This document shows, one piece after another, positions 16,713 through 60,853 of a DNA stretch of 64,000 bases. How positions within the stretch are numbered: position 1 is the first letter of the stretch; each line of letters opens with the position of its first letter. Origin of the DNA: an uncultured Gammaproteobacteria bacterium. GTDB lineage: Bacteria; Patescibacteriota; Microgenomatia; UBA8517. The stretch covers positions 733,865 to 797,864 of the forward strand of contig OZ246419.1 in the NCBI GenBank assembly GCA_965231135.1. The letters are read 5' to 3'. The notes under the pieces are model-generated. The model did not search any database, was not told the DNA's origin, and saw only the letters and a list, made by a program, of their open reading frames with translations. A program made the translations under genes and the position numbers.

Positions 16713-17333
16713 ATGAACTTCATTTTTGATTTTGATGGGACAATTTGTGATTCGCTAGATATTACAATTGGCATATTAAACGCATACGCAAAAAAGTTAA
16801 ATAGGCCACAAATAACTAAAGAAAATTTTAGAACAAAAGGTATCGAAGCATTAATTAATGAATACCATTTTAATAAGTTGCAGGTATTACTTTATGTTTT
16901 AAAAGGTAGACAGGAATTATCAAAACACATAAATGAAATGAAAAGTTATGAAGGCTTGCCTGAGGTTTTGAAGAAGCTGTCTGAAAAAAATAATCTTGGA
17001 ATAGTTAGTTCAAATTCATCAAAAAACATTGAAAGATTCTTAAAAAATAATAATTTGGCCTCATATTTTAAATTTATTTACTCTTCCACTTCCCTGTTTG
17101 ATAAATCCAAAAAAATTAAATCTGCAATGCAAAAATATGATTTAAAGGCTAGTGAAACTGTTTATATAGGAGATGAAATTCGAGATATTAAAGCTGCGCA
17201 TGATATAAATTTAAATTGTATTTCAGTTTCCTGGGGTTTTGAGAGTAAGAAATTGCTTCGCGAATACGCTCCAAACTTCTTGATTAGCTATCCGAAAGAA
17301 TTACTTTCAACGGAAAAACAATTACTGCATTAA
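16713..17333 (+). CDS. HAD-superfamily hydrolase
   Basis: N-terminal FIFDFDGTICDS (DxD motif I) and C-terminal GDEIRDIKAAHDINL (motif IV). Confidence 0.75.
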   Translation: MNFIFDFDGTICDSLDITIGILNAYAKKLNRPQITKENFRTKGIEALINEYHFNKLQVLLYVLKGRQELSKHINEMKSYEGLPEVLKKLSEKNNLGIVSSNSSKNIERFLKNNNLASYFKFIYSSTSLFDKSKKIKSAMQKYDLKASETVYIGDEIRDIKAAHDINLNCISVSWGFESKKLLREYAPNFLISYPKELLSTEKQLLH

Positions 17334-20390: not shown

Positions 20391-20395
20391 CTCAT

Positions 20396-44300: not shown

Positions 44301-44494
44301 CTGGAGCAACAAATGTTATTATTAATACTAATGCTGTTAACAACAGCTCTTTAATCTTTGTAACCGCAAGCACAGCAACAAGCAAGGTTTTAGCGGTAAC
44401 AACAAAGGTTCAAGGAACAAGTTTTACAGTTTCGATTCCGACAGCAGACATCAATAATATTAATTTCAATTGGTGGATTGTTGACAAACAATAA
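38324..44494 (+). CDS. Giant (2056 aa) membrane-anchored repetitive Ser/Thr/Gly/Asn-rich protein with an N-terminal cytoplasmic HTH (excisionase/MerR-type) domain, one TM helix, and a long beta-helix-like repeat region
   Basis: HTH YISINEAAIKLGVSTKTLRRWEVAGKLIAVRTNGGHRRYEI (nt ~38345-38500); TM ILKIVGFSFFGFILIAGVF (nt ~38690-38747); internal duplicated modules; a non-repetitive Cys-containing C-terminal domain (~43.3-44.5 kb). Confidence 0.75.
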   Translation: MSKLPRNKYISINEAAIKLGVSTKTLRRWEVAGKLIAVRTNGGHRRYEISKLTELKINGFKTPRKEYIKKIVVNQTVSDTPKIIKIDNIVEPLKINPNIITEALPTPIDIYNAPTLAPQQKNILKIVGFSFFGFILIAGVFKISPAVISATNLFKANADNIAVNYFPGMPGAVKSFLSSRNNNFADNKDVASKFGQNVQVLAAETKANVPVFNVNIESSFKQVADFVKGLTSTDVSTGTLEASDNATFAKNVDISGDLTSSSATFNLLPKNVTSLNIGLTSTTTSISATTGTTTINNDLNVKGATALSGALNVGGKITGSGDLAISGASVLSGALNVSGVTTLASDLSAAGNATFGNITKVNGVTYSFPTTQGAGGSTLTNDGSGNLSWVSGSGSGTIGFWTRTGTILTPATEGDTIATTGQIGAGTTTPSYQLDIQNPISANNGILANFALSNSNTGAGIITNGINVSATGSIPASGTNTNNLINLSAITAGSNTFNGINFGSGLSNYINSTNFIVTAAGAETLNSSLVAVGVNAQSGLLQGTGGLTLTGTTNINSTGVANTTVGNTSGTLALSSNAFNLDTSGNITGVPSLDTINVSSTALTFAGAGTIDSGTANALNLGTGNNAKTINIGTGNAGNIINIGTNDTTADAINIASAKDTTTLAGNISLTNLSLGTGSALCLDGSNNLVTCTTGTGGISGSGASGQIAYYNGASSITGNNSFFWNTATTQLGIGTNSTTAGVTIAENSGDLIDAGTTSSTKFTLDNSGNILVSPSTRYDTLTSGTLGVGTTNATTVNVGNLSSTTNLIGATNINTTGSGNTTIGNGSGTVALNLGSDATGDIYYRNSGGTLSRLGIGSSGQTLTVSAGIPSWVGGSGGTGSSGFWSRTSGGVLSPATATDTFNLAPNTTNGTGVNAGFNLQANSLTSGNAVDISSSSITSGNLLSLSSTSTAFTSGAIANLSWSPSASTTATGDLLKLNVGSNGILGNILDVQNNGSTIFGVSQTQIIAALPTQFTAAGDVGFAYDVNFTNPVASNIKSSSNLNIAAGETFNSSDLTLTTYNAGNILLNTGTSSTGNGKVGIGPSVTPTSLLTVNNANELSNIGQSLALFNQTENQDIMTASNSGTTRWTLGYQGNITGTAVNTSGNSYSYTNTALNTTSANLQALAFTNAASSGSITVSGENITATGTATSGTNTNNLVNLSVAAAASNNTFNGINFGSNLTNYINGTNWVVTAAGNETIAGINVTGLTANSAVYTDGSKNLTTSAPSSGALGYWTRTGTTLSPTTSGDAVTTSGNISTTGSGTITSASDLAVNGSNFTSSSSSFNLLNSTPTTINFGGNATTALNIGNGNSAYTAINFGSGTGGNTIGIGNGANTGAQTINIAAGAAGANSTVNILSGIATSGTQTLNLGTGASAKTVNIGNSTGATALNFTSGTGAQTFASSVVTGTTTSGAFAFNANSLTTGDGLYLNSSSITTGNLLNITSTSTAFTSGNLASIYWNPGSSTTATGDLLKLNVGSNGILGNILDVQNNGSTIFGVSQTQISNNLPVSFNAPGDIVDAYDFSFTNPVSSNIKSSAPLTIAAGEIFNSSNLTLTTYNLGNILLNSGTSTGGNGLVGIGPSVSPTSLLTVDNTNELSTIGQSLVLLNQTESQDILTASNSGTTRFKINSAGNTFTTLRSTGTAALCHTTNGAGFDEITDCSGTPAADYAEFYPTDGSVDYGDIVAPSSQTVTTKVSDGQGGIITGQTQQTSVLTKSSLAYQGNVIGIVSNNYNDFTSTGYNIVDPSNNPKPVALNGRVPVKIATDSPEIAPGDYLTTSDQPGRATKATQAGRVIGMALENWSSSSGKDTVLVFVNNTWYDPNADAIAATGSAQLNNIALMLQDSFTASDSGIIANLHELDTAKLNVLGDTTLGDTVVNGKLNVGGLTFDDTNQSINAIGVLKIQDLALGNVEFMNGLITFDTNGNAKFQSVTANKYNVAGTSAGTGTITAGATNVIINTNAVNNSSLIFVTASTATSKVLAVTTKVQGTSFTVSIPTADINNINFNWWIVDKQ
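41235..41346 (+). repeat. 112-nt direct repeat (copy 1) inside the giant gene, part of a roughly 1.6-kb diverged internal duplication
   Basis: Identical to 42849-42960 except one mismatch (gtgagcc vs gtaagcc); encodes GDLLKLNVGSNGILGNILDVQNNGSTIFGVSQTQI. Confidence 0.85.
42849..42960 (+). repeat. 112-nt direct repeat (copy 2)
   Basis: See copy 1; the flanking protein sequence is about 70% identical over roughly 500 aa. Confidence 0.85.
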
Positions 44495-47400
44495 TGAAAA
44501 AACTTTTCAAAAGAAAACCAAAATTATTTTACGGACTTATACTATTTATAGTAGTTATATCTTTAGTTGGAATAAAACTTTGGGCGGGTAAACCAGTACA
44601 AGGAGCATGGTTTGATACCAAGTGGGCTTTTCGACAACGCTTCCCTATTTCCAATACCTCCGGTGCAACACAAACAAATTTTCAGACGCAAATAACATTA
44701 GACACTTCAACATTAATAAGTGCAGGGAAAATGCTTTCGACTTGTAACGATTTGCGAATTACAAATGCAACTGGAAAACAACTTCCTTTTTGGATAGAGC
44801 CAACTACATGCAATACAGCTTCAACTTTAATCTGGATAAATGTTGATTCGATTCCAACAACAGGAGCTGATGTTTATTTATATTATGGAAATCCATCTGC
44901 AAGCCCTGCAGGGTATACAACTAACCAAGTTTTTATTACAGATATGAATCAAGCTGTTGCGGGTTGGCCTTTGGATGATACAACCACTACCCAAAGTTAT
45001 GCGAGAGCAGTGAATGGTGCGACTAGTACAGGAAGAAATTTAGTTTTAAACGGAACTTTTGATAGCAGCTCAAGTTGGAACTTTAATGGGACAGGTTGGA
45101 CTATTTCTGGTGGGATGGGAGTGGCTACAAACGCACAAACTACTGACCTTACTTATCAAAATGTTCCTTTGGTAGCTGGAAGAAGTTATCAAATCACTTA
45201 TACCATTTCTGGTTATACCTCAGGAAGTGTCAGGGTTCTCGCAGGAAATGGTGGCTTTGGAACGATGCGCTCAGCAAATGGAACATACACTGAAAATATT
45301 ATTGCAGCCGGAGCTTTATATGTGGGATTCCAAATTCCAGTGAATGGAACAACCCTAAATATTGATAACGTTTCAGTTACTGAAGTAAACATTCCCTCTT
45401 CTACTGCAACACCAACACAATTACTTACTGATGGAAATATGGAAGCAAGTGGGACGGGGGCGTGGACAGCAGGCGGAAGCGCAACACTTTCGAAACAAAC
45501 AGGGACTTCCCATGGAGGAACACAAATTTTAAGAATCACTGCAACCGGTGGTACAAATCCTAATGCTTCTCAGAATATTCTTTCTAACAATACTGTTTAC
45601 AGGGTTTATGGATATGCAAGAAGTGATGGGAATATTGCACCTAAAGTTTATTTGGGAAGTAATCTTATGTGGACTGGAACAACATCGGCAACCTGGCAAC
45701 CGTTTGACTTTGTAGGTTTAACTTCTACGGGTAATAGTACTTTTTATCTGCTTCAATCAAGCAGTATAAATGGCCAATATGTAGAATTTGACGACGTAAC
45801 AGTTTCCCTTGATACAGGCATAAGAAGTGATTCTATTTTATCTACACTTGATGGAGATATGGAACAGTCTGGGACTTCTTACTGGAGCACATTAAATGGC
45901 GCTACGATCTCGAAAGATGCCAGCAGTCCACATGGCGGAACTCAATCTTTAAAGATAGTCAGCTCTGGCGCCTCAAGCCAGAATGTATACCAGACTTACC
46001 TATCTAGCGTTGCAGGAAAAACTTATCGAATTACTGGGTACGCAAGAGGAGATGGAACTGCTGTTCCTCAAATTCTTTTACCAAACGGAGCTGCTTTGTG
46101 GACCGGAACAAATTCAAGTTCTTGGCAATCATTTGATGCAACGTATGTATATGTAGCTGCTTCTCCATACGGATCTCCAATTTTAAGGCCTCAAAATACT
46201 GCTCCTAACGGCGATTATGTTGAATTTGATGATATTATCATTAACGAAGTCGATCCTCTAGTTGGAATCCCTACAAACGGAGTAACTCTTGGAGCTAGTG
46301 CAAACGGCCATCTCACTAATGCATATTCTTTTGATGGCACAAATGATAATGTGAATATTTATTCAGGAAGCTTAAATTCTGTCTTTAATCCTTCTGAAGG
46401 AACAATTGTGGCATGGGCAAAAGTAAGTGGAGCTGGAGTGTGGACAGATGGAACTCAGAGAGTGATTGTGAGAATTGGCCGTGTGGATGGAAATAATAAT
46501 TTAACTATTTCCAAAAGCGCGTCATCTAATACACTTACGGCTTCTTATGTTGCTGGAGGGTCAAATTTAACTGCTAATACAACTACTTCAACAAGCGGAT
46601 GGTTTATGGTTACACTAAGCTGGTCTAAGAGCAGTGACCAGGTTAAACTTTATTTAAACGGCACGCAATCAGGATCGACTTTGACAGGAGTTGGTACATG
46701 GAGCGGAAATTTTCAAAGCGTTAACTCAGTTATTGGAGATGCAAGTACAACACCCGGTTTTCCATGGAGCGGGCTCATTAATGATGTACGAATTTATAAT
46801 TACGCATTAACACCGGCCCAGATTGCCGCACAATACAACGCATCTTATGACACACAAAACTACACAACTGCAAACGATACAGGACACGAATTGGTGCGAG
46901 AGTACAATACAAACATTACAGTTGGAGCGGCTGCAACAGAAGAAGTTGGGCAAGCTTCAATATTAAACTGGCATTTGGACGAAGGAAATGGAACAACTGC
47001 AAACGATGCAAGCACAAATGCAAATAACGGAACTTTAGCTGGCACTACTCCACCATCCTGGCAAACTGAAAATAATTGTGTAATTGGTAAATGTTTGCTT
47101 TTTGACGGACAGAGCTCAAAAATAACTGGAACAAAGGCAGCTAATAATTTGCAAACTGTAGCTTTCTGGATTTATCCAACTGATATAACAAGCCGCGGGA
47201 TTATGAACTTAGACGGCGGAACTCACAAAATATCTTTGAGTTCGTCTGGAATTGTAACTGCTACAGGCTGGTCTTCTCCAACATATTATGTAAATGGTAT
47301 TGCAACAACAAATCCTGTTTTATCCTTAAATCAATGGCAGTATGTGGAAATTACAACAGCAACACCTTTCTCTACTTCAAGCTCTTTTACAGTCGGGACT

Positions 47401-50400
47401 GACGGGAGCACTTTTACACAAGGATATTTGGATGAAATAAAATTTTATAATTATGCAAGAAGTGCTGCACAGGCACTTGCGAATTACAATTCTGTCGGAA
47501 ATTTGATTGGAGCTGCAAGACAATACGGACCAAACGGATTAATTGCAAACTGGGGGCTACAAGATACAACTTCTACACAAAGTTATGCAAGTGTAAGCAA
47601 TGCAGGACAAAGTACTGGACGTAATATAGCTGTTGACGGAGACATGGAAGCCTCAGATACAAGTGCGTGGACAAATGCAGGTTCTGGAGCAGCTTTTACC
47701 AAAGATACAACTAATCCTCATGCTGGATCTAGAGATTTGAGAATTACTTGGGTGTCAGGATCTAATCCTTTGGCACAGTTAGTTAGCAATCCAATAGTAA
47801 TTGGCAGATCATATCGAGTTCGCGGATGGTTTAAATCAGACGGTTCTCATACTTCTGGAGTCTATGACAACTCCACTCCTTTAGCTGTTTCAACTACTGG
47901 AGGTTCCTGGGAATCTTTTGATATTACTTATGTTGCCACTACCACAGGTTTACGTTTTCGTGTCAACACTAGCTCTGCTGGATATGCCGATTTTGATGAT
48001 ATTACAGTTCAGGAAGTTAATATTCCTTCTTCTGCAACAACACCAGCTCAACTACTTACTGATGGAAATATGGAAACTTCTGGAACTGCTGCATGGACAG
48101 CAGGTTTTTCAGCAACTTTATCAAAACAAACAAACAACCCTCATAGTGGTGCTCTAGTATTAAGAGTAGCTTCAAATGGCTCGCTTCAAGGGTATGCGGG
48201 TCAGAATATTCTTACGGTAGGAAATGTCTATCGTATTTATGGTTATGCAAGAAGTGATGGAACCGCTATTCCCAAAATTGCAGGAAACTCTGTAACATAT
48301 TGGGGCTCTGGAACAAATTCAACAACCTGGCAACCTTTTGATGTTGTGTTAGTAGCTAGTAGTGGATCCTTATTGGCTCTCCAAAATCAGACCACAAGTG
48401 GCTATGTTGAGTTTGATGATGTGACAGTTTCACTTGATACTGGAATAAGATCTGATTCTATTTTGTCTACTCTTGATGGAGATATGGAACAAAGTGGAAC
48501 GAGCTACTGGACAGCTGCAAACGCTGCTACGCTTTCAAAAGATTCATCTGCTTCTCATGGTGGAACTCAAGCTTTAGAAATCTTATGTACTGGCACAGGA
48601 AATCCTGCTGCGAGGCAAACGCCACTTTTAACTGGCAAAACCTACAGGTTGACTGGCTGGGCAAAAGGCGATGGTACAGTTGGCCCATCAGTCGTTGTTG
48701 CTTCAGGTGCAATTTGGACTGGAACAGCTTCGACTTCGTGGCAATTTTTTGATGTAAGTTGGATTGCAACTTCTAATTTAATCAGTCTTGTCGCTGCTAC
48801 TTCTAGCAGTGGTAAATTTGTGGAATTTGACGATCTTACATTAACTGAAATTTCACCTCTTTCTGGAATAAATACAAACGGAGTAACTGTAGGAGCTGCT
48901 GCAAACGGACATTTAACTAATGCATATAGTTTTGATGGGACAAATGATTTTGTAAATATTTATTCAGGAAGTTTGAATAGCGCCTTTAATTCAAGTGAGG
49001 GCACACTTATTGCGTGGGCTAAAGTGAATGGAAGTGGAGTTTGGACAGATGGCTCAGTTAGGAGAATTGTTAGTTTGTCAGTTGACGGCAGCAATCTCAT
49101 TTCATTGGCAAAATCAAATGCAAATAACACGCTTATTATGCAATATTATGCTGGTGGTACAGCTTCTTATGTCTCTAACGGTTCTGACCCAAGTGGTTGG
49201 TTTCAAATTGCTATTACCTGGAGTAAGTCAACCGATCAAGCAAAAGGTTACCTTAACGGCACCCAACAAGGGGCGACGATGACAAATTTGGGTACATGGG
49301 CAGGAAACCTTACTTCTAGCAGAGTCACTATTGGAGCCGACACGACTTCAGGTTCCAATCCATGGTCTGGCCTCATCAACGACGTCCGTCTTTATAACCG
49401 CGCTTTATCCCCTGCTGAAATTTCACAGCTTTATAACTATGCTCCAGGGCCTGTTGCTTACTGGAAGATGGATGAAGGCACTGGAACAAATGTCAATGAT
49501 TCATCAGGAAATGGGAATACTGGAACATGGAATGGAACTTTAGGGAGTCAATGGGCTAGTGGAAAATATGGAAAAGGAGGAAACTTTAATGGGACTGATA
49601 ATTATGTTTCTGTCTCAAGTTCAAATACTTTGGGTCCCACTGCAATTACTATGGCAGCTTGGGTAAAATTACCGTCGGGTTTTGCTTCAAATGGTGATGT
49701 AATAAACAGAGGAGATAATAGTGGTTACAGAATGCAAATCACGGCGGGAAAAACAGTTGCTTTTGATGATCGTGGAGCTACCAATCAGGTTAATCCATCC
49801 ACGACCTTAACTACTGGAGTTTGGAATCATATAGAAATGGTTGGTGATTCTTCTGGCCTAAAAGTTTATTTAAATGGGGTATTGATTGGAAGCAATTCTA
49901 CAGCCTATGGAGGAACAAATACAGGAAATCTCTTAATAGGTAGCCGTTTTACCAGTTCTGGATATTTGCCAGCAGTTATTGATGATGTGAAAATTTATAA
50001 TTATGCAAGAACTCCTCAACAAATTTTAGATGATATGAATGGCGGACAAAACGCAAACAATTTGTCTGCGCAAGGAAATAGTTTGCCCAAACCTTTGGAC
50101 TATTGGAAATTTAATGAAGGTTATGGAACAACAGCAAACAACTCTGGAGTTAACTCAACGGAAACTGGAACATTAAATAGCGCAACATGGTTGCTTAATA
50201 ATAATTGCAAAGCTAATAATTGTGTAAATATATCTGCAAGTACTAATAATGTTTCTTTTGGAGATGTTAGTTATATTGATTCTCTAACTGGTTTTTCAAC
50301 TGACTTTTGGGTAAATCCGCAGGTTTTGGGTACTTCTAAGATGATACTTTCAAAAGCGAACACTAGTTCGCAGCGAGTTTTCGCAATCGAGACAGATCCC

Positions 50401-52242
50401 TCTACTAATAGTGAAATAAGAGTATTTGTTTCATCAAGTGCTTCTGATACAAGTAATTTCTGCAAAACAACTGGACTTGGACTAACTACTGGAACTTGGC
50501 AGCATTTAGCAATTGTTTATGATGGCACTGGACCTACTATTACTGTATATAAAAACGGAAATCCTATTACCTGTACTGTAACCGGCACTATTCCCTCTTC
50601 TTTAGTTTCAGGAACTACAAGCAATTTGAAACTTGGGCAGGGAGATGATTCAACGCCAACTGCACTTCTTGCATATTATGATGATCTTAAAATTTATAAT
50701 ACTGCCCTATCACAATCGCAAATATTATTAGATCAAAACGGCGGACAAGCTGAAGACTTTGGAACAAGAAGCGCGCCTGAAGCAAATCAATTAACAGATA
50801 CTGCTGGAAACCCACCAGTTGCTTACTGGAATTTTGATGAAGGAACTGGATCCACCGTCAATGATTCCAGCGGAAATTCTAACACAGGCACTTGGCAAGG
50901 AACACTAGGAAATCAGTGGGCAACAGGCAAATATGGTAAAGGAGGAAATTTTAATGGAAGCGATAATTATGTAAGCACTAACACTTCTACAAGTACCACT
51001 ACTATGCCAAATTTTACAAGTGAGGCTTGGTTTAAAACAGGAACTGCTTCTGGACACGATATAATTTCACTTGGTGGAACTCAAACAGGGACAGACAATA
51101 GTCATTCGAGAGATTTATACATGGGTGCTGACGGAAAAATTTATTTTGGAATTGCAGACGGTGGATCAAATATTTATACAGTAAATTCACTCTCAACTCT
51201 TAATGATGGCAAGTGGCATTTTGCAGTTGGAACTTATACGAGCTCTACTAAGGCAATAGCTCTTTATATTGACGGAGTATCGCAAGGAACCACAAATGAC
51301 ACAGGTGAATCAAGTTTTTCAGGCTGGTGGCGTATTGGAAGTTATAGGTTAACAGCTTGGACGCAAGCTTCGGATGGTTATTTCACAGGTCAAATTGACG
51401 ACGTCAAAATCTACAATTACGCCCGAACTCAAGCTCAAATTGCATATGATTATAACCGTGGGGCGCCAGTTGGATGGTGGAAATTTGATGAATGCCAGGG
51501 AACTACAGCTAATGATTCATCCGGGAACAGAAACACAGGAACAATAACAATTGGAGGAAGCGGAACTCAAACTTCTGCAGGAACCTGCAACACAAGCGGA
51601 ACTGCCTGGGGAAACGGTGTCGTCGGAAAGTTTGATTCTTCCCTTAATTTTGATGGAACTGACGATTATGTCAACACTAATTCTACCTTTAGTTCAATTT
51701 TCCAAAACAGTTACAGTATTTCCTTCTGGATGAAGCCAAGTAATGGACATCCTGCAGGCATTCAAAGCATGTTTGGGAATGCTGAAAGTGTAAGTTGTGG
51801 AGGAAACCCATGTATTGTCAAATCGTTCTTAAACGGTGATGGAACAATTGAATTTCAGTTTCAACCGGGGGGAGCTACTACTGCTGATGCAAAGACAAAT
51901 AATGCTATTTTTGCAAGTGGACAAGGAAACTGGACACATGTAACAATTGTTGCCAATTCTACAATCAATGGTATTGGAGGAATTTTGATTTATATTAATG
52001 GACAACTTGCAACATTAAATGCAACAAATAACGGAAGTACTGCTAGTGTTACTTTTTCTGGTTATACTGCTATTAATAAACTATTCCTTGGAGCCCGTGA
52101 TAGTGGAACTGCTAGCCAACTTTTTAGTGGCCAAATTGATGATGTCAGAATTTATAACTATGCCCTATCACTTACACAGGTGCAAAAACTTTATAATGAC
52201 GGATTTAGCACTTTTTACGGACCTAGCACAGGTACTCCATAA
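44494..52242 (+). CDS. Giant (2582 aa) N-terminally anchored surface protein: DUF2341 domain, multiple CBM4/9-like carbohydrate-binding modules and multiple LamG/concanavalin-A-like lectin domains
   Basis: ATG overlaps the upstream stop (TAATG); TM LFYGLILFIVVISLVGIKLW; DUF2341 signature WAFRQRFPI...DLRITNATGKQLPFWIE...VYLYYGN; repeated LamG units ending ...GLINDVRIYNYAL(T/S)PAQI...; CBM-like units QLLTDGNMEASGTGAWTA...YVEFDDVTVS. Confidence 0.8.
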   Translation: MKKLFKRKPKLFYGLILFIVVISLVGIKLWAGKPVQGAWFDTKWAFRQRFPISNTSGATQTNFQTQITLDTSTLISAGKMLSTCNDLRITNATGKQLPFWIEPTTCNTASTLIWINVDSIPTTGADVYLYYGNPSASPAGYTTNQVFITDMNQAVAGWPLDDTTTTQSYARAVNGATSTGRNLVLNGTFDSSSSWNFNGTGWTISGGMGVATNAQTTDLTYQNVPLVAGRSYQITYTISGYTSGSVRVLAGNGGFGTMRSANGTYTENIIAAGALYVGFQIPVNGTTLNIDNVSVTEVNIPSSTATPTQLLTDGNMEASGTGAWTAGGSATLSKQTGTSHGGTQILRITATGGTNPNASQNILSNNTVYRVYGYARSDGNIAPKVYLGSNLMWTGTTSATWQPFDFVGLTSTGNSTFYLLQSSSINGQYVEFDDVTVSLDTGIRSDSILSTLDGDMEQSGTSYWSTLNGATISKDASSPHGGTQSLKIVSSGASSQNVYQTYLSSVAGKTYRITGYARGDGTAVPQILLPNGAALWTGTNSSSWQSFDATYVYVAASPYGSPILRPQNTAPNGDYVEFDDIIINEVDPLVGIPTNGVTLGASANGHLTNAYSFDGTNDNVNIYSGSLNSVFNPSEGTIVAWAKVSGAGVWTDGTQRVIVRIGRVDGNNNLTISKSASSNTLTASYVAGGSNLTANTTTSTSGWFMVTLSWSKSSDQVKLYLNGTQSGSTLTGVGTWSGNFQSVNSVIGDASTTPGFPWSGLINDVRIYNYALTPAQIAAQYNASYDTQNYTTANDTGHELVREYNTNITVGAAATEEVGQASILNWHLDEGNGTTANDASTNANNGTLAGTTPPSWQTENNCVIGKCLLFDGQSSKITGTKAANNLQTVAFWIYPTDITSRGIMNLDGGTHKISLSSSGIVTATGWSSPTYYVNGIATTNPVLSLNQWQYVEITTATPFSTSSSFTVGTDGSTFTQGYLDEIKFYNYARSAAQALANYNSVGNLIGAARQYGPNGLIANWGLQDTTSTQSYASVSNAGQSTGRNIAVDGDMEASDTSAWTNAGSGAAFTKDTTNPHAGSRDLRITWVSGSNPLAQLVSNPIVIGRSYRVRGWFKSDGSHTSGVYDNSTPLAVSTTGGSWESFDITYVATTTGLRFRVNTSSAGYADFDDITVQEVNIPSSATTPAQLLTDGNMETSGTAAWTAGFSATLSKQTNNPHSGALVLRVASNGSLQGYAGQNILTVGNVYRIYGYARSDGTAIPKIAGNSVTYWGSGTNSTTWQPFDVVLVASSGSLLALQNQTTSGYVEFDDVTVSLDTGIRSDSILSTLDGDMEQSGTSYWTAANAATLSKDSSASHGGTQALEILCTGTGNPAARQTPLLTGKTYRLTGWAKGDGTVGPSVVVASGAIWTGTASTSWQFFDVSWIATSNLISLVAATSSSGKFVEFDDLTLTEISPLSGINTNGVTVGAAANGHLTNAYSFDGTNDFVNIYSGSLNSAFNSSEGTLIAWAKVNGSGVWTDGSVRRIVSLSVDGSNLISLAKSNANNTLIMQYYAGGTASYVSNGSDPSGWFQIAITWSKSTDQAKGYLNGTQQGATMTNLGTWAGNLTSSRVTIGADTTSGSNPWSGLINDVRLYNRALSPAEISQLYNYAPGPVAYWKMDEGTGTNVNDSSGNGNTGTWNGTLGSQWASGKYGKGGNFNGTDNYVSVSSSNTLGPTAITMAAWVKLPSGFASNGDVINRGDNSGYRMQITAGKTVAFDDRGATNQVNPSTTLTTGVWNHIEMVGDSSGLKVYLNGVLIGSNSTAYGGTNTGNLLIGSRFTSSGYLPAVIDDVKIYNYARTPQQILDDMNGGQNANNLSAQGNSLPKPLDYWKFNEGYGTTANNSGVNSTETGTLNSATWLLNNNCKANNCVNISASTNNVSFGDVSYIDSLTGFSTDFWVNPQVLGTSKMILSKANTSSQRVFAIETDPSTNSEIRVFVSSSASDTSNFCKTTGLGLTTGTWQHLAIVYDGTGPTITVYKNGNPITCTVTGTIPSSLVSGTTSNLKLGQGDDSTPTALLAYYDDLKIYNTALSQSQILLDQNGGQAEDFGTRSAPEANQLTDTAGNPPVAYWNFDEGTGSTVNDSSGNSNTGTWQGTLGNQWATGKYGKGGNFNGSDNYVSTNTSTSTTTMPNFTSEAWFKTGTASGHDIISLGGTQTGTDNSHSRDLYMGADGKIYFGIADGGSNIYTVNSLSTLNDGKWHFAVGTYTSSTKAIALYIDGVSQGTTNDTGESSFSGWWRIGSYRLTAWTQASDGYFTGQIDDVKIYNYARTQAQIAYDYNRGAPVGWWKFDECQGTTANDSSGNRNTGTITIGGSGTQTSAGTCNTSGTAWGNGVVGKFDSSLNFDGTDDYVNTNSTFSSIFQNSYSISFWMKPSNGHPAGIQSMFGNAESVSCGGNPCIVKSFLNGDGTIEFQFQPGGATTADAKTNNAIFASGQGNWTHVTIVANSTINGIGGILIYINGQLATLNATNNGSTASVTFSGYTAINKLFLGARDSGTASQLFSGQIDDVRIYNYALSLTQVQKLYNDGFSTFYGPSTGTP

Positions 52243-52267: not shown

Positions 52268-55200
52268 ATGAAAAAAGGGCTGAAAATTTTACGACTCAAA
52301 TTTTCAAAATATTACAGACAAAGACCTAAACTTTTTTTTGGGACGATTTTACTTGTCACTATTTTACTTTTGGTGGGGATTAAACTTTGGGCGGGAGGCC
52401 TGGTAAAAGGTGCCTGGTTTGATAACAACTGGGCTTACAGACAAAGAGTTGATATAACTGTTTCTTCAAATTCAAGCGATGTAAAGAATCTTGAAACTTT
52501 GATGACAATTAACACATCAAGCCTAGTTTCTGCCGGCAAATTGCAAAGTTCGTGTCAAGATTTACGGTTTACAAACATACATGGCGATTCTTTACATTAT
52601 TATATTGATTCAGGGTGCAATACTTCTACCACAAAAGTTTGGGTGATGGTTGATCTTGTTCCTAAAAATACCACTACTTATTCGCTTTATATGTATTATG
52701 GAAATCCGACAGCAACTGCGGGATCAAGTTCGACTTTTTTTGATAATGTTGTTCATTTGATGGGCTATTGGACTATGAACGAATCCAGCTGGAACGGAAC
52801 TGCTGGAGAGGTAAAAGATTCCAGTGTTACGGGAGGAAACGGCGGTGGGCTCTGTACAGGAACAGGATGCTCAATACCTTCTACAACCACTGGAGAATAT
52901 GGTAATGCCGCAAGCTTTGCAACAAGCGGCACAACAAATGAGCAATATGCTCTTATTCCTGATAATAATTTTATAAATATTACTGGCGATTTTACAATTG
53001 AGATGTGGATTAATCCTGCAAGCTCTAGCCAGAATGCAAATAACGACATTCTTCGTAAAGAATCTACGAATAACGGATTTGGTATTGAGGCCACTGGAAG
53101 TAATTTAACTTATGTCGCTGGATGGAAAAATGGAGCAACTAATAATTGTTATACCACTAACACTTTTAGCTTAAGTGCGAGTACATGGCAACATCTTGTG
53201 ATTACAAAAAGCGGAACAACAAGAACTGTTTATATAAATGGGGCAATTCAGGGAGGTGCAACCTGTACTGGAACAAACGCAACAATTTCTTCAAGCAATG
53301 GAGCTGCGCTTAATATTGGAGGCTGGTCTTTACAAACCACACGAGGATTTAACGGAAAAATTGATGATGTTAAACTTTATAATACAGCAAGAAGCGCAGC
53401 TCAAATATCGGCTGATTATACAAATACAAGCTGCGGGGGCTTAGCGTGCGCCATTGCCAGTTCAACTGTGCCGGTTACAACTCCGACTACTTCGTTTGCC
53501 TCAGAAGAAGTCACTCCTGGAGCAATTCTAACTTATAAGTTTGATGAAAATATGGGAACGACAGCAAACGATTCAACAGCAAATGCAAATAACGGGACAC
53601 TTGGCGGGACAACTCCCCCATCCTGGCAAACTTCAGATCAGTGTGTTAGTAACACTTGTTTATTCTTTGATGGCCAAAGCTCAATTGTGACGGGTAGTAA
53701 AGTCGCTACCGGAATCAAATCTATCTCTTTTTGGATCAGGCCAAGTAATATCGGCAAACAAGGGATTCTTAATCTAGATGGCGGGACACATAAGGTTTCC
53801 ACTAATGAGTCTGGAGTAATCAGCGCCACTGGTTTTAGTTCACCGACTTACTATATTAACGGCACGGTTACTACCACTCCAACTCTGACTTTAGGACAAT
53901 GGAACTATGTCACGATTACCACTGGCACCAGTTTTAATTCAACTTCCAGTTTTACGCTGGGAACTGATGGAGTCACTTTTGCAGGCGGGTATGTAGACGA
54001 AGTGCAATTTTATAATTATGTGCGAACTGCAGCTCAAGTGCAATCTGGATATAATCTGGGGGCTTCGGCGATTAAGCTAAATCCAACTGTTCCTTTGAAC
54101 AGTTTAGTTGCTTCTTGGCCGCTGGATGACACCACCAGCACCCAAAGTTATGCCAGAGCGGTGACGCCAGGAGCTGGTACAGGAAGAAATATCGTTCTAA
54201 ATGGAGGATTTGATAGTACTTCTAATTGGTTACTAGGCACAGGCTGGACTATTGCAAATGGAGTTGCGCATCAAGATGGTACAGGAAGTGCTGCCTCACC
54301 TATGTATGAAGTTCCAAGTTTGGTAGCTGGTAAAGCATATAAGATTACTTATACAATTTCAAATTATGGAGGCACAGGATCTATCAACTCACAAGTTGGT
54401 TCAGGCGCCGCCAGCTCTCCTCATTCAGGTAATGGTACATATACTGATACTTTAATTGCTCCAACTAATCCTTATCTAGGGATAAATGTTTGGACATCAG
54501 GATTTGTTGGCGACATTGATAATGTTTCAGTTCAAGAGATTAACATTCCTGCCTCTACTGCCACCCCTACCCAACTCCTGACTGATGGAAATATGGAAGC
54601 AAGTGGCACGGGGGCGTGGACTGCAAACAATGCTGCCACATTAAGCAAACAAACAACAAATCCTCACAGCGGAAGTCAATTGTTAAGAGTTGCAAGAAGC
54701 ACAACTAACCTTGCTTATGCCTCTCAAACAATACTTACAACAGGGCAGGTCTACAGAATCTATGGGTATATGAGAAGCGATGGGACAGCTACACCTCAAA
54801 TTGCTCAAAGCGGTAGCAATATTGTTGTTGGGACTGCGTCAACAACTTGGCAGCCGTTTGATGCTGTTTTTGTAGCCACGGGTAATTTCATACAATTAAT
54901 TAATCAAGCGTCCTCAGGTACACCTTATGTTGAATTTGATGACGTGACTGTTTCTCTTGATACAGGAGTAAGATCTGACTCTATTCTTTCAACTCTTGAT
55001 GGAGATATGGAACAGAGTGGAACGAGTTACTGGACAGTTGGAAACGCAGCTACACTGTCCAAGGATTCTTCTGCACCTCACGGAGGAACGAATGCTTTGA
55101 AAGTTGCAAATAGCGGATCTTCTAGTCCTGAAGCTATTGAACTTGTGTTGGTCGCAGGAAAAACATACCACTTAACCGGCTGGGCAAAAGGAGATGGTAC

Positions 55201-58200
55201 TGCAATACCAAGAGTATTAGATGGAACAGCTACTGCAAGATTTACTGGTACAACTTCCACATCATGGCAGCAGATTGATACAACATTTATTAATTCTACC
55301 GGTGCAAGTATGTATTTAACGGCTACTGGAGGAACAACTGGAAATTATGCAGAATTTGATGATATTACAGTTCAGGAAATTTCCCCCCTTTCTGGTCTCA
55401 ACACCAATGGTGTGACTGTGGGGGCAGCTGCAAATGGCCACCTCACCAATGCATATTCTTTTGATGGCACAAATGATAATGTGAATATTTATTCAGGGAG
55501 TTTGAATTCAATCTTTAACAATGATCAAGGAACTTTAGTTGCTTGGGCGAAGTTTACTGGTACATGGTCTGAAGCTGCTGAACGCTATGTTGCTATCATG
55601 CAGACAAATGGTTCAAATGCAGTCGGCATTGAAAAAAGTGGATCTAATACTCTAACTGCTAAGTATGTTGCGAATGGAACCACAAAATCTGTTAATATTT
55701 CTACCTCTACAACTAATTGGTTCCAGGTTGTAATAACATGGGACAAAACAAGTGATCAAGTCAAAATCTACTTTAATGGTAGTCAGTACGGTTCTACTCA
55801 AACAGGATTGGGGACGTGGACTGGAAATTTGACATCAGTTGGTGCAGTCATAGGCTCCGTAAACACTTCTGGTACTTTCCCTTGGTCTGGGATGATTAAT
55901 GATGTCCGCCTTTATAACCGTGCTTTGTCGCCCACAGAAATTTCTCAACTTTACAGCTATGCTCCTGGGCCTGTTGCGTATTGGAAACTTGATGAGGGCA
56001 CCGGTAGTACCGCTTTTGACGTGTCCGGTAACTCCAATACCGGCACTTTGACTGGTTCTCCAACGTGGACCACTGGTAAAGTTGGTAAAGCGTTAAATTT
56101 TAATGGCAGTAGCCAATACATTGTCGGACCCGCGAGCCCCAGTGTGGAAATGACCAGTGGCGTGACTGTTGGCGCTTGGGTGAATCCCAGTGTAGTTGAT
56201 AGTGCCTACCACACTATTGCTGGGAGATGGAAAGTGGGAGGCGATCAACACTATATTTTGCAACTTAATTCAGATAACAAATTCGGTTTCTTTTTTGATA
56301 CCGATGGCGGCGACGCTTCCACTGGACAATTTTTTGTAGAGTCGACGACCACACCGAGTGCCAACACTTGGTATTACGTCGAGGGGGTTTTCGATCCCTC
56401 AACCACCAGTCTAAAAATGTATGTGAATGGGAATCTGGAAGCCACCACCACTGATGCCAGTCTAACTACCGGCGCTGCCGGATCGATAGAATTAACTGCT
56501 GGTTCAAAAAAGAATTCCGGAGGGACTTATATAGAATTCTGGCCGGGGAAGCTGGATGACATCAAAGTCTATAACTACGCCAGAAATCAAACTCAAATTT
56601 TGGATGATATGAGTGGAGGTCAAAGCGCAGGTCCTATTTCTCAAAGTACCGTTCTACCTCAGCCGGTTGGTTACTGGAAATTTAACGAAGGCTATGGAAC
56701 CACCGCCAATAACTCAGGTTTGGGTGGCTCAGCTTTAAACGGAACACTTACGAATATGGCCTCGCCGGCTACTAGTACCTCGGGTTGGCAAACGCCTCAG
56801 TCCGGAAATTGTAAGATTAATGGCTGTCTGGCGTTTGACGGCAGTAATGATTTGGTTAATATTACCGATAATAGTGATACTCTGGGAACCAGCGCAAGTG
56901 ACTTCTCAACCTCTGCCTGGTTTAAAACAACCGATAATAAAAGTTTTAACGGTATCATTTCAAAAGGATTTAACAGCCACTGGCAATATGCAATGTATTT
57001 AGCTGCAGGACTTCCCAAATGTCAGCTTTTTCAGAATGGTTCTGGATCTACCTATTTATCGTTTACTGGGACCAGAACTCTTAATGACGGGGTATTTCAT
57101 CACATAACCTGTACTTTTTCTGCTTCTACTACTACGCTTACTTTATATGTAGATGGCAACAAAATTGGTTCTTCTAATACCACGTCGGGCAGCAGAGATA
57201 CATCTACTGGATCTAAAGTTGTTCTTGGAGCTTTTGCTGATAACAGCAGCGATAATTTTGACGGACTTATTGACGAAGTCAAAGTCTATAATACTGCTCT
57301 TACCCAGCAGCAAGTTCAGGCTGACATGAACGCCAGTTCGGTTGTAAATAACGGAACAACCGCTGCAAACGAAGCGTCTCTTCTTATGGGCGGCGCTGGG
57401 AACCCTCCTGTTGGATACTGGAATTTTGAAGAAGGCACCGGTACCACTGCTCACGACGCAAGCGGAAACGCGAATAACGGGACTTTGACTAACGGTCCAA
57501 CTTGGACTGTCGGCAAGATAGGCAAAGCAGTTAAGTTTGATGGGAGCAATGATTATATTGATGTAGGAAGCGGATCTTCTTTGGGCCCCAGCACTGTAAC
57601 GATTTCTGCCTGGATTGATCCTTCCAGCAGCTGGTCAGATTACGGAAACATTCTTTCAAATAATGACAATAGCGGTTTTAGAGTGCGAGTAAATAATGAC
57701 TTAACACTCACCTTTTTGGACCGAGGACCAACTAATAATGTATCAACAACTGCTACTATTCCTTTAAATACTTGGACTTATGTAACTTTTGTTGGAGATT
57801 CAGCCGGTTTAAAGATCTATATCAATGGAACTTTAAGTGCGAGTAATGCCGTTGCTTTTAATAAGGGAACAACTGGCGACACTGTTATTGGGGCGCGATC
57901 CACAATAAGTTCGCTAGAAATTTTCAAGGGGGTAATTGATGAAGTCAAGGTATATAACTATGCTAGAACTCAAGCTCAGATTGCATATGACTATAACCGG
58001 GGGGCACCAGTTGGCTGGTGGAAAATGGACGAATGCCAGGGAACAACACTAAATGATTCAAGCGGAAACGGAAATGCCCTAACGCTTAGTGTTGGTGGCA
58101 GTGGGACCCAGACTGCTATTGGGACATGCAACACTTCTGGGACTGCCTGGGGAAATGGCGCAACGGGGAAATTTAATTCATCGCTTAACTTTGACGGAAA

Positions 58201-58741
58201 TGACGACTATGCTGATAAAGCTTCTCCTTCCAGTGGTGTCTTATTGGGAGCTTTAAGTTCATATTCTATCTCAGCCTGGTTTAGGACCACTTCTACTACC
58301 AATGATTTGGTGCTTTACTCTGAAACCAATTCCTCAACTAATACGCCCGCAGTACTGATTATGGTTAATCGCAACACTATTGGGGGGGTTGGGACATATA
58401 AACGAGATGATTCAGGGAACACAGATGATTTTACCGGCGGACGAAATTTGGGTGCAAATGATGGAAATTGGCATAATTTGATTGGTGAACGAAATGGCAA
58501 CACCTTGTATGTTTATTTTGATGGCAAATTAATTAATACCACTTCAGGCTCGGCCGGGACGGCTACCACGAACAGAATCACTATTGGCGCCCAAGGCAGA
58601 ACGTCAGGGTTAATTAATTACTTCCCAGGGCAAATTGATGAGGTAAAAGTTTATAATTATGCCCTTTCGAGTTCGCAGGTGCAAGAAGTTTACAATCAAG
58701 GAGCGGCTTTGCGGTTTGGACCGACTTCTGGAAATCCGTAA
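52268..58741 (+). CDS. Giant (2157 aa) paralog of the preceding gene (TM, DUF2341, CBM-like and LamG-like modules)
   Basis: Same architecture; WAYRQRVDITV...DLRFTNIHGDSLHYYID...LYMYYGN; shares near-identical nt tracts with 44494..52242 (e.g. 46318-46367 = 55448-55497). Confidence 0.8.
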   Translation: MKKGLKILRLKFSKYYRQRPKLFFGTILLVTILLLVGIKLWAGGLVKGAWFDNNWAYRQRVDITVSSNSSDVKNLETLMTINTSSLVSAGKLQSSCQDLRFTNIHGDSLHYYIDSGCNTSTTKVWVMVDLVPKNTTTYSLYMYYGNPTATAGSSSTFFDNVVHLMGYWTMNESSWNGTAGEVKDSSVTGGNGGGLCTGTGCSIPSTTTGEYGNAASFATSGTTNEQYALIPDNNFINITGDFTIEMWINPASSSQNANNDILRKESTNNGFGIEATGSNLTYVAGWKNGATNNCYTTNTFSLSASTWQHLVITKSGTTRTVYINGAIQGGATCTGTNATISSSNGAALNIGGWSLQTTRGFNGKIDDVKLYNTARSAAQISADYTNTSCGGLACAIASSTVPVTTPTTSFASEEVTPGAILTYKFDENMGTTANDSTANANNGTLGGTTPPSWQTSDQCVSNTCLFFDGQSSIVTGSKVATGIKSISFWIRPSNIGKQGILNLDGGTHKVSTNESGVISATGFSSPTYYINGTVTTTPTLTLGQWNYVTITTGTSFNSTSSFTLGTDGVTFAGGYVDEVQFYNYVRTAAQVQSGYNLGASAIKLNPTVPLNSLVASWPLDDTTSTQSYARAVTPGAGTGRNIVLNGGFDSTSNWLLGTGWTIANGVAHQDGTGSAASPMYEVPSLVAGKAYKITYTISNYGGTGSINSQVGSGAASSPHSGNGTYTDTLIAPTNPYLGINVWTSGFVGDIDNVSVQEINIPASTATPTQLLTDGNMEASGTGAWTANNAATLSKQTTNPHSGSQLLRVARSTTNLAYASQTILTTGQVYRIYGYMRSDGTATPQIAQSGSNIVVGTASTTWQPFDAVFVATGNFIQLINQASSGTPYVEFDDVTVSLDTGVRSDSILSTLDGDMEQSGTSYWTVGNAATLSKDSSAPHGGTNALKVANSGSSSPEAIELVLVAGKTYHLTGWAKGDGTAIPRVLDGTATARFTGTTSTSWQQIDTTFINSTGASMYLTATGGTTGNYAEFDDITVQEISPLSGLNTNGVTVGAAANGHLTNAYSFDGTNDNVNIYSGSLNSIFNNDQGTLVAWAKFTGTWSEAAERYVAIMQTNGSNAVGIEKSGSNTLTAKYVANGTTKSVNISTSTTNWFQVVITWDKTSDQVKIYFNGSQYGSTQTGLGTWTGNLTSVGAVIGSVNTSGTFPWSGMINDVRLYNRALSPTEISQLYSYAPGPVAYWKLDEGTGSTAFDVSGNSNTGTLTGSPTWTTGKVGKALNFNGSSQYIVGPASPSVEMTSGVTVGAWVNPSVVDSAYHTIAGRWKVGGDQHYILQLNSDNKFGFFFDTDGGDASTGQFFVESTTTPSANTWYYVEGVFDPSTTSLKMYVNGNLEATTTDASLTTGAAGSIELTAGSKKNSGGTYIEFWPGKLDDIKVYNYARNQTQILDDMSGGQSAGPISQSTVLPQPVGYWKFNEGYGTTANNSGLGGSALNGTLTNMASPATSTSGWQTPQSGNCKINGCLAFDGSNDLVNITDNSDTLGTSASDFSTSAWFKTTDNKSFNGIISKGFNSHWQYAMYLAAGLPKCQLFQNGSGSTYLSFTGTRTLNDGVFHHITCTFSASTTTLTLYVDGNKIGSSNTTSGSRDTSTGSKVVLGAFADNSSDNFDGLIDEVKVYNTALTQQQVQADMNASSVVNNGTTAANEASLLMGGAGNPPVGYWNFEEGTGTTAHDASGNANNGTLTNGPTWTVGKIGKAVKFDGSNDYIDVGSGSSLGPSTVTISAWIDPSSSWSDYGNILSNNDNSGFRVRVNNDLTLTFLDRGPTNNVSTTATIPLNTWTYVTFVGDSAGLKIYINGTLSASNAVAFNKGTTGDTVIGARSTISSLEIFKGVIDEVKVYNYARTQAQIAYDYNRGAPVGWWKMDECQGTTLNDSSGNGNALTLSVGGSGTQTAIGTCNTSGTAWGNGATGKFNSSLNFDGNDDYADKASPSSGVLLGALSSYSISAWFRTTSTTNDLVLYSETNSSTNTPAVLIMVNRNTIGGVGTYKRDDSGNTDDFTGGRNLGANDGNWHNLIGERNGNTLYVYFDGKLINTTSGSAGTATTNRITIGAQGRTSGLINYFPGQIDEVKVYNYALSSSQVQEVYNQGAALRFGPTSGNP

Positions 58742-58783
58742 TTGGGTTGACATAGCTTCCTAAGAAAGGAATAATAAACATAC

Positions 58784-60829
58784 ATGCAAAGGCAGTTAGA
58801 AAATATTCGTGAATATTTGATTTTAGGAATTGTATTTTTGTTTCCTTTTACTTTTGCAGGGACCTTTATTGATTCATTTACAATTCCAAAATTAATTGTT
58901 TTGGGAACGTTAATTTGTCTTTCTTTAATTGTGGTTGCGATTCAGATTTACCTCACAGGAAAATTTAAAATTGGAATTGGAAAGTTTGATTTACCAATAT
59001 TTTTAATCGCATTTTCCTATCTTATTTCGGCAATTCTTGTTACGCCAAATAAAATGGAAGCGTTTTTTTTGCCAGGGAATGCAAGTATAGTTATCGGCTT
59101 TGCCATATTTTATTTTCTTCTTAATACAATTGCGGACAAAAATAAAATCAAACTAACTCTTTTTGCAAGCGTGACATGTTTTGCAATTCTTATTTTTGCA
59201 AGCTTTTTGGGAGTTTTTGATAAGATTTCAAATTTGCCTTCCTTTATGAAACTTGCTTCGTTTAATCCTGCAGGAGATTATCTAACAGGAGCAATATTAC
59301 TTCTTTCTGTAGTTCCTTTTGCAATTAACTATGTAGTAAAAGAAAATATTCTTACCAAAAAGACAGTCTTTGCATTCGGGCTTGTTTTTGTATTAGTTGC
59401 CGCAGGAATTTCTTTATTTACACTTGTTTCATCAGATAAAAAGATTGCACCAACACTGCCTTCATTTGCAACAAGCTGGGCAACTGCTGTTGGAACAATT
59501 GGAGAAAATCCAGTTTTGGGAATTGGGCCTGGAAATTATATTACTGCTTTTAACAGGTTTAGACCGGTTACATACAACGCGACAGACCTTTGGCAATTAA
59601 GGTTTTCTACAGCAAGAGATTTTTATTTGACAGTTCTTACTGAAACCGGACTTTTGGGAATGTTTGCTGTCTTTTTGTTAATTTTTTATCTAATTAAACA
59701 AATAAATCGCAATTTAACAATTTATAAAGAAAGCAGGAGCGTTGTAGTTGACATGGTTTCAACAGGTACACTTCTTGGACTGCTTATTATATTTTTTATT
59801 TTTCCAACAACTCCTGTTTCGTTATTTTTAATTTTTGTTTTCTTTTCTTTAATTTCTCAAGCGAAAGTACAAGAAGTAGGTTTCTTTGAGGGAAGTACTT
59901 CGGCAACAGGAAGAGTTTTGGCAAGCCTTGCAATTATTGCATGTGTTTTTTATTTTGGAATAAAAGCAAAACCAGTAATTCAAGCTGAAGCTATATTTAA
60001 AAATGCAAATGATGCACTTTCTGCAAATGACGGAAAAACAACTTATACAGATTTACAAAGTGCAATTAATTTAAATCCGATGGTTGACAGATATCATGCT
60101 TCATATGCGCAGGTAAATTTGGCAATCGCAAGAAGTATTGCAACAAGTGTTGCCGACCCAAAAAGCCTTACACAGGATCAACAAAATACAATTTTACAAC
60201 TCATTCAGCAGGCAATTCGCGAAGGACAAAATACGGTTACATTAAACAGCACAAGATCACAAAACTGGCAAATACTTGCAAACATTTATCAACTTATTAT
60301 TCCTTATGCACAACAAGCTGACCAATTTGCATTACAATCTTATTCACAGGCGATTACTCTTGACCCGATTGATCCAAACTTAAGAATTGCTCTTGGAGGA
60401 CTTTACTATAGCTTGGGCCAATATGACAGCGCAATTGGTTCTTTTCAATTTGCAGTTTACGCAAAACCAGATCTTGCTAATGCATATTACAATTTAGCGA
60501 GCGGTTATGCTGCTAAAAGCGATTTTACAAATGCTGTTGCTGCTATGAATCAAGTGATTCTCCTTGTTCCAAAAAATTCAAATGATTACAAAACAGCACA
60601 AGAGACTTTGACTGATTATCAAAATAAACAAAAAACGACTGCAACAACAAATAATGGTAATTCATCGTTAACAACTCCACAAAAAGAAACACCGGCAATT
60701 AACCCACAAATCACTCTTCCTGAAGAAGCATCGCCTCCAGCTGCACCAAAGATACCAAGCGCGACAGCAACACCTGTAGCAACAAATGAAGGCGGACAAA
60801 CTGAAGCTTCACCAACTCCCCTTCCGTAA
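58784..60829 (+). CDS. Polytopic membrane protein with C-terminal TPR repeats and a Pro/Thr-rich tail; tentatively O-antigen-ligase (Wzy_C)-like
   Basis: About 12 predicted TM helices in the first ~400 aa; TPR-like ...LGQYDSAIGSFQFAVYAKPDLANAYYNLASGYAAKSDFTNAVAAMNQVI...; the Wzy_C assignment comes from architecture only. Confidence 0.5.
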   Translation: MQRQLENIREYLILGIVFLFPFTFAGTFIDSFTIPKLIVLGTLICLSLIVVAIQIYLTGKFKIGIGKFDLPIFLIAFSYLISAILVTPNKMEAFFLPGNASIVIGFAIFYFLLNTIADKNKIKLTLFASVTCFAILIFASFLGVFDKISNLPSFMKLASFNPAGDYLTGAILLLSVVPFAINYVVKENILTKKTVFAFGLVFVLVAAGISLFTLVSSDKKIAPTLPSFATSWATAVGTIGENPVLGIGPGNYITAFNRFRPVTYNATDLWQLRFSTARDFYLTVLTETGLLGMFAVFLLIFYLIKQINRNLTIYKESRSVVVDMVSTGTLLGLLIIFFIFPTTPVSLFLIFVFFSLISQAKVQEVGFFEGSTSATGRVLASLAIIACVFYFGIKAKPVIQAEAIFKNANDALSANDGKTTYTDLQSAINLNPMVDRYHASYAQVNLAIARSIATSVADPKSLTQDQQNTILQLIQQAIREGQNTVTLNSTRSQNWQILANIYQLIIPYAQQADQFALQSYSQAITLDPIDPNLRIALGGLYYSLGQYDSAIGSFQFAVYAKPDLANAYYNLASGYAAKSDFTNAVAAMNQVILLVPKNSNDYKTAQETLTDYQNKQKTTATTNNGNSSLTTPQKETPAINPQITLPEEASPPAAPKIPSATATPVATNEGGQTEASPTPLP

Positions 60830-60853
60830 GCAAAGCTTGTCACTTTGATAAAG

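Follow-up and report, generated by a model that had tools for sequence, protein, structure and literature searches.

A stretch of 64,000 nucleotides of contig OZ246419.1 (the window) was found to encode, at 58784..60829 on the + strand, a 681-aa membrane protein in which a domain of WaaL-like fold is followed by a tetratricopeptide repeat (TPR) domain. The gene, which was taken from the list of open reading frames (ORFs) and its translation and which begins with ATG, is referred to below as the Wzy/TPR gene. Its product belongs to a large, uncharacterised family of Patescibacteria with a fixed WaaL-fold and TPR architecture, and across genomes the gene is linked to genes for giant Ser/Thr-rich proteins. 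These properties suggest a protein O-glycan transferase, similar to WsfB and PglL, that acts on the giants. We put this reading forward tentatively, as a serious possibility that falls short of being probable; it is based on conserved synteny and on architectural analogy, and is weakened by an active site that departs from the canonical one.

In the window the Wzy/TPR gene is preceded by three giant ORFs, all on the same (+) strand: giant 1 (2056 aa, 38324..44494), giant 2 (2582 aa, 44494..52242) and giant 3 (2157 aa, 52268..58741). Giant 3 lies directly 5′ of the Wzy/TPR gene, separated from it by a gap of 42 nt between positions 58741 and 58784, and all three proteins are candidate clients or partners of the Wzy/TPR protein. 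Both the 42-nt gap and the Ser/Thr/Asn/Gly-rich composition that a first-pass annotation of this DNA had reported for the giants were confirmed: Ser and Thr together make up 24-26% of their residues (24.1% in giant 2 and 24.3% in giant 3) versus 11.9% in the remaining proteins of the window, with about 12% Gly and 8-12% Asn.

The arrangement was then compared with that at 54 loci from other genomes, three obtained by contig look-up and 51 found by scanning one genome per species, in which the neighbouring genes were grouped by clustering. These loci are phylogenetically related, so the counts that follow do not represent independent events. An ORF of the giant families was present 5′ of the orthologous gene on the same strand in 43 of the 54 loci, and immediately adjacent (position -1) in 29. 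Conserved in this way, the linkage to the giants is no coincidence of a single locus. The giants at the other loci are also rich in Ser and Thr (median 20.8%, versus 12.7% for other neighbours), and the linkage was kept among orthologs of only 24-62% identity, while other neighbours changed. At the locus of the 62%-identical ortholog the whole gene order was retained (MerR-type giant, LamG-type giant, Wzy/TPR gene, M23 peptidase, Rho). More generally, homologs of giant 1 sit 5′ of the Wzy/TPR gene at many loci, and LamG-type giants occupy position -1 in several other genomes. No other neighbouring family approached the count of the giants (M23 peptidase 14 loci, Rho about 13-15, LeuRS 12). If the giants are indeed the substrates, the gene therefore adjoins a substrate gene in 43 of the 54 loci. 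Many of the loci (L007, L009, L011, L019 and others) carry the submitter label 'uncultured Gammaproteobacteria bacterium'; they are probably mislabelled, as their gene content and protein similarity are clearly Woesebacteria/Patescibacteria-like.

On the downstream side the commonest family was a Y1 transposase of about 233 aa, encoded on the same strand at +1 to +3 in 17 of the 54 loci (among L007-L057) and absent from the window. It was classified as IS200/RAYT-like on the basis of sequence motifs ('YCLMPNHFHLL') and the Y1_Tnp annotation, and because it is a transposase of this kind the commonest downstream neighbour is uninformative. The second recurrent downstream family was a small transmembrane (TM) protein without known function.

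The composition and domains of the giants are those expected of accessible clients, as judged from their sequences: they are Ser/Thr-rich and are predicted to be exported or anchored in the membrane. In giants 2 and 3 alike, an N-terminal signal anchor is accompanied by a DUF2341 domain and six Laminin_G_3 (ConA-like lectin) domains (Pfam E 1.5e-117 and 2.2e-138, respectively). Their LamG regions also match the NCBIfam model 'TafC family fimbrial protein' (E 1e-34 and 1e-52), at scores far under the model cutoff, which indicates likeness at the level of domains only. Giant 1 is of another type. It has an N-terminal, cytoplasmic helix-turn-helix (HTH) of the MerR/BldC (excisionase) type at aa 9-56 (Pfam MerR, E 6e-10; NCBIfam HTH_BldC), a single TM segment at aa 122-140 and then a Gly-, Thr-, Ser- and Asn-rich ectodomain of about 1900 aa. 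It thus resembles a giant surface fibre that carries a DNA-binding domain tethered to the membrane, and is possibly a contact-sensing regulator. The same order of HTH, TM segment and ectodomain is kept in its homologs in other genomes. A sortase gene lies nearby; however, no LPXTG-type signal was found at the C-termini of the giants, and for this reason they are unlikely to be sortase substrates.

The start codon assigned to the Wzy/TPR gene is right, because the N-terminus of the product aligns with the conserved N-termini of its homologs, and the protein is identical to a database entry encoded on an 810-kb contig of a metagenome-assembled genome ('hypothetical protein VG895_00695 [Patescibacteria group bacterium]'). 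Eleven hydrophobic segments were detected, all within aa 10-391, and the membrane domain (aa 1-399, 58784..59980, +) has about 11 TM helices in a WaaL-like fold. From the hydrophobic segments and the distribution of Lys and Arg, the N-terminus is predicted to lie inside the cell and a large loop (aa ~207-279) outside it; from the TM count, the last helix (aa ~374-396) would exit outward and so place the following domain on the extracytoplasmic side. This helical-repeat domain (aa ~400-621, 59981..60646, +) consists of about five hairpins. Several TPR families of Pfam scored above their cutoffs at aa ~490-600, AlphaFold2 placed ten helices at aa 417-621, after the WaaL-fold domain, and the structural matches were MamA, OGT and consensus TPR proteins. 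The domain is a candidate module for binding an acceptor or a partner. The description of the gene product in the first-pass annotation, as a polytopic protein with C-terminal TPRs, was thus correct.

The AlphaFold2 model of the full-length protein had a mean predicted local distance difference test (pLDDT) score of 86.5 and a predicted template modelling (pTM) score of 0.83. Its outward-facing loops were confident, and were less so when the membrane domain was modelled by itself; this drop would fit a packing of the loops against the TPR domain, but a shallower alignment could also have caused it. The protein ends in a low-confidence tail rich in Pro, Thr, Ala and Ser (aa 622-681, 60647..60826, +), with pLDDT values <50 at aa 623-635 and 658-681. 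Five residues of the tail (L629, P632, L645, P651 and P652) are invariant in the family, the consensus being roughly LTPPQ...ELPEEAxPPAAP. The tail recalls the low-complexity regions of Ala, Pro and Ser that act as acceptors in PglL substrates, and could serve as an acceptor for the protein itself, as a peptide bound by the TPR domain or as a linker across the wall.

The first-pass annotation had given the assignment to Wzy_C as tentative. Taken by itself, the protein matched Pfam Wzy_C (PF04932) with an E value of 0.0069 and 16.6 bits, under the cutoff of 31.7, over aa 181-296 (59324..59671, +; profile positions 29-148). Among 46 aligned homologs, however, 36 matched the same profile at E<=0.01, the best of them at 1.4e-8. 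When ten proteins were scanned one by one, two exceeded its curated cutoff (P0079, 33.7 bits; P0266, 42.8 bits). A weak NCBIfam match of the protein was to IctB, a family of the Wzy/WaaL group. The homologs match Wzy_C and the membrane domain has a WaaL-type polytopic fold, so neither of the outcomes that would have refuted the first-pass annotation (no Wzy_C match, or an unrelated polytopic family) was obtained; the assignment to Wzy_C holds at the level of family and fold, and that to the fold is solid.

The homologs, 620-700 aa long and all of one architecture, belong to Patescibacteria, Microgenomates and Woesebacteria. In an exhaustive search the profile of the membrane domain matched 7,241 representative clusters at E<=1e-3, and at the stricter limit of E<=1e-30 the number was 435; the best 150, where full-length, fall in the same length class as the protein studied here. 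Existing annotation of the homologs amounts at most to 'tetratricopeptide repeat protein' or 'O-antigen ligase/TPR', and in a literature search we found no paper that links this family to taxa of the Candidate Phyla Radiation (CPR).

The Wzy_C core carries a conserved loop motif, for which column conservation was computed both in 46 and in 241 homologs. Its N-terminal part reads P243-x2-G246-x-G248-P-G-N251-Y252 ... R260-P261 ... N265 ... W270 ... R273, and its C-terminal part A277-R278-D279 ... T286-E287-x-G289-x2-G292. In the set of 241 members G246, G248 and G289 are each invariant (241/241), and N265 (240), W270 (239) and N251 (228) nearly so; Arg or Lys is kept at the positions of R260 (234/241) and R273 (229/241), and E287 in 217. 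Such strong conservation of residues in an extracytoplasmic loop argues for a retained ligand-binding or active site.

The gene probably has a promoter of its own and a very short or absent leader, as far as a consensus match can tell. A sigma-70-like match (TTGACA-17-AATAAT, 11/12 positions) lies within the 42-nt gap at 58747..58775 (+), ends 8 nt before the ATG and was the best in a scan of 18 kb. A TTGAC box was present within 80 nt 5′ of the orthologous gene at 37 of 52 loci, mostly 37-50 nt from the start codon, compared with 9.5% of background windows.

The mechanism that we propose would run as follows. The membrane domain would bind a glycan linked to undecaprenyl pyrophosphate (Und-PP) at the outer face of the membrane, with a donor site formed by the conserved loop residues G246/G248/N251/Y252, R260, N265, W270, R273 and E287. 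The extra TM helix at the end of the membrane domain would place the TPR domain and the Pro/Thr-rich tail outside the cell, where the TPR domain could hold the protein acceptor, and the glycan would be transferred to hydroxyl side chains of the Ser/Thr-rich giants encoded upstream, during or after their Sec-dependent export.

The candidacy as an O-oligosaccharyltransferase (O-OTase) raised in the first-pass annotation is partly supported, and precedents for such a protein exist. In architecture and cell type the closest is WsfB, the predicted S-layer O-OTase of the Gram-positive Paenibacillus alvei. Compared by description, it too combines a Wzy_C membrane domain with C-terminal TPRs, as does PglL, whereas in the case of WsaB the TPRs reside in a protein of their own, the gene for which lies upstream (PMC2943079). 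The wsfB gene is likewise monocistronic, its host lacks an outer membrane and its acceptor is a large surface protein (PMC2943079), a role that is putative for the giants here. The difference is that wsfB lies in the biosynthesis locus of the S-layer glycan (slg), whereas the Wzy/TPR gene has no adjacent glycan genes. A transferase encoded next to its substrate is also familiar from the Gram-negative protein O-OTases PglL, PglS and PilO (TfpO), of which 21 of 31 pglL genes adjoin pilin substrate genes (PMC3643930). These enzymes belong to the Wzy_C superfamily and have an additional C-terminal extracytoplasmic domain; PglS, for instance, has 13 TM helices and a periplasmic C-terminal domain (PMC12800693). 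Their substrates are pilins, whereas the putative substrates here are giant lectin- or fibre-like proteins. TfpW, the pilin arabinosyl O-transferase of Pseudomonas aeruginosa, combines a polytopic N-terminal transferase with a large periplasmic C-terminal TPR domain, and tfpW lies directly 3′ of the substrate gene pilA (bioRxiv 10.1101/2020.04.19.049825), but its fold differs from that of the protein studied here.

In structure the nearest relative is WaaL (Cupriavidus metallidurans, PDB 7TPJ/7TPG; E. coli), which shares the Wzy_C core with its GxGxG ... ExGxxG framework and with which a colinear profile alignment of 321 columns was obtained. Identity to WaaL is only 9-10%, and the Wzy/TPR protein, with its roughly 11 TM segments, has in addition a C-terminal TM helix and an external TPR domain that WaaL lacks. 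The host presumably has no lipopolysaccharide, which is the acceptor of WaaL.

A number of results weigh against a transferase that acts on the giants, and several of them concern the catalytic residues. The functional conserved residues R215, R288 and H338 of E. coli WaaL correspond to R224, R298 and H349 of Neisseria meningitidis PglL (PMC3643930), and an H324A mutant of PglS is inactive (PMC12800693). In the Wzy/TPR protein the position of WaaL H338 is taken by R278 (nt 59615-59617), as found by three routes. In Pfam coordinates WaaL 205-354 corresponds to profile positions 6-146 and aa 181-296 of our protein to 29-148, which puts both residues at about position 130. The motif register gives the same pairing (A-R-D-F-Y-L...T-E-T-G-L-L-G here, L-H-N-E...K-G-L-M-G in WaaL), as does a colinear profile-profile alignment of 321 columns between the 241-member family and 26 enterobacterial WaaL sequences. 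This last alignment is weak (E 0.005, probability 6.7%) and was used solely as a cross-check of the register at the His position; hhalign of a 21-sequence profile against the single sequence of E. coli WaaL was not significant. The column of R278 is variable in the 241 members (R 94, S 66, T 22, N 22, Q 11, H 8), and no conserved His was found in aa 1-400 across them, so that the periplasmic-loop His by which the O-OTase proposal was to be checked is missing and the equivalents of PglL H349 and PglS H324 are not conserved in this family. WaaL R215 and R288 have no alignable counterpart, as both stand opposite gaps in the weak alignment, although two other loop positions, those of R260 and R273, are conserved as Arg or Lys. 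Judged from these sequences the active site looks retained but non-canonical, and catalysis would have to proceed without the canonical His.

Further points on the same side come from profile searches and from gene context. The PglL_A motif (PF15864), which separates PglL from WaaL (PMC3643930), had no match in the protein even at E<=1, and a search of the PDB with the membrane-domain profile returned nothing relevant, so there is no sequence-level link to a solved structure; with the full-length profile only TPR proteins were found. Eleven of the 54 loci have no adjacent giant, and two orthologs of 41-46% identity are instead preceded by LeuRS and an integrase-like ORF. A promoter-like site of its own means that co-transcription with the giants is not implied. 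Richness in Ser and Thr would be equally expected of beta-rich fibre or lectin domains that are not glycosylated. Glycan-assembly genes are absent from the immediate neighbourhood in the window and only sporadic near the orthologs, where genes for sugar-nucleotide synthesis or GT2 enzymes were found within 10 kb in only about four to five of the 54 loci. No Wzx flippase, Wzz co-polymerase or repeat-unit glycosyltransferase gene was found in the 64-kb window. A conserved glycan-assembly cluster beside the orthologs was considered and rejected, the examples being sporadic. The same applied to two genes that had been named as suppliers of lipid-linked glycan, uppS (14989..16227; Prenyltransf, E 2e-66) and a WecG/TagA glycosyltransferase gene (tagA; 17284..18024, E 3e-40): both are real and are located as described, but more than 40 kb separates them from the Wzy/TPR gene; they sit amid housekeeping genes and, being distant and of housekeeping type, add no specific support.

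These results leave room for other explanations. An acceptor other than protein is unlikely, though with a real chance of being right. A Wzy-type polymerase would polymerise Und-PP-linked repeat units, and a WaaL-type ligase would join glycan to a membrane glycolipid or a cell-wall polymer of a monoderm-like cell, the TPR domain in either case scaffolding envelope machinery and not the giants. Pfam Wzy_C includes polymerases and ligases besides O-OTases, and the IctB match points to the same Wzy/WaaL group (PMC4594306). The combination observed here, in which the catalytic His is absent and basic loop residues are conserved, would suit an Arg-dependent Wzy polymerase, since such enzymes are not known to have the WaaL/PglL-type His and do have conserved basic loop residues, and the wide distribution of the family (435 representative clusters at E<=1e-30) would suit a core envelope function. 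The frequency of M23/LysM peptidase, Rho and sortase genes among the neighbours, and the presence in the window of uppS, tagA and a DedA/VTT protein, can be read in the same way. An enzyme of this kind would nevertheless leave the same-strand linkage to the giants unexplained; moreover, genes for Wzx, Wzz, an initiating transferase or a glycosyltransferase cluster are neither adjacent nor conserved near the orthologs, and in the literature consulted it is for protein O-OTases that TPRs fused to Wzy_C proteins have been described (PMC2943079). Improbable, in our estimate, is a general O-OTase that would modify a range of proteins, type IV pilins and further surface proteins among them, and whose place after the giants would reflect a shared organisation of surface genes and no dedicated pairing of enzyme and substrate. 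The promoter-like element, conserved in the orthologs, and the 11 loci at which the gene is preceded by LeuRS and an integrase-like ORF, with no adjacent giant, are consistent with this, and the PglL of Neisseria is a general OTase that is not encoded next to pilE (PMC3643930). Pilins are abundant in CPR bacteria (PMC6744442), some of them predicted to be O-glycosylated (PMC12206443). However, pilin genes neither adjoin the Wzy/TPR gene in the window nor recur around the orthologs, the linkage to the giants is far stronger than that to any other family, and the problem of the catalytic His applies to a general enzyme just as it does to one dedicated to the giants.

If the loss of the canonical His and the variability of its position are taken at face value, the protein might instead be a non-catalytic pseudo-enzyme of WaaL fold that, through its TPR domain, docks the giants at the membrane or assists in their assembly. 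TPRs are classical scaffolds for protein-protein interaction and the conserved gene linkage would be accounted for, but we give this possibility a very slim chance: G246, G248, N265, W270 and G289 vary little or not at all among the 241 members and R260, R273 and E287 are highly conserved, and conservation of this kind in a loop is typical of an active or ligand-binding site that has been retained, not of one that has decayed.

The surroundings of the Wzy/TPR gene complete the picture of the locus. A tRNA-Ala gene (anticodon CGC, 60853-60924, -) lies 24 nt past its stop codon and ends the unit. Farther 3′, and also on the - strand, lie genes for an M23 peptidase with LysM domains (60956-62035), Rho (62053-63252) and a sortase (63299-64000), a trio that recurs near the orthologs. 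Elsewhere in the window are tRNA genes for Arg (CCT, 20319-20391) and Pro (CGG, 22869-22941) and a cluster of six genes at 7229-12866 (-). The latter comprises a GATase/peptidase C26-like gene, three RimK-like ATP-grasp genes, a 'sugar-transfer associated' ATP-grasp gene with a C-terminal aspartyl-protease-like region, and a gene for a 7TM_transglut membrane protein. The cluster seems to form a peptide-ligase/7TM system with no relation to the Wzy/TPR gene. A PEGA-domain ORF (18967-20298, +) overlaps mreB (18123-19178, -) by about 210 nt, and its true start is probably farther downstream.

Patescibacteria (CPR) are largely uncultured and are thought to live attached to host cells, and the giant proteins on their surface are leading candidates for making contact with the host. 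A lineage-wide protein of WaaL fold with a TPR domain, genetically tied to such giants, offers a testable route to the glycosylation or assembly of CPR surface proteins. If the family is inactive, it would represent a transferase fold reused as a scaffold. If it is active, a family without the canonical His would broaden the mechanistic picture of the WaaL/PglL/PglS class and could supply new O-linking transferases for glycoengineering. There is also a slim chance that it constitutes a His-independent branch of the WaaL fold, spread throughout the Patescibacteria and dedicated to giant adhesins, in which the TPR domain would capture the giants for coupling to a lipid-linked glycan or wall polymer. 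This coupling could take the form of heavy O-glycosylation, or of a covalent anchoring equivalent in purpose to that by sortase or LCP enzymes. Such a branch, if it exists, would be a lineage-specific way for ultra-small episymbionts to build the surface with which they contact their hosts.

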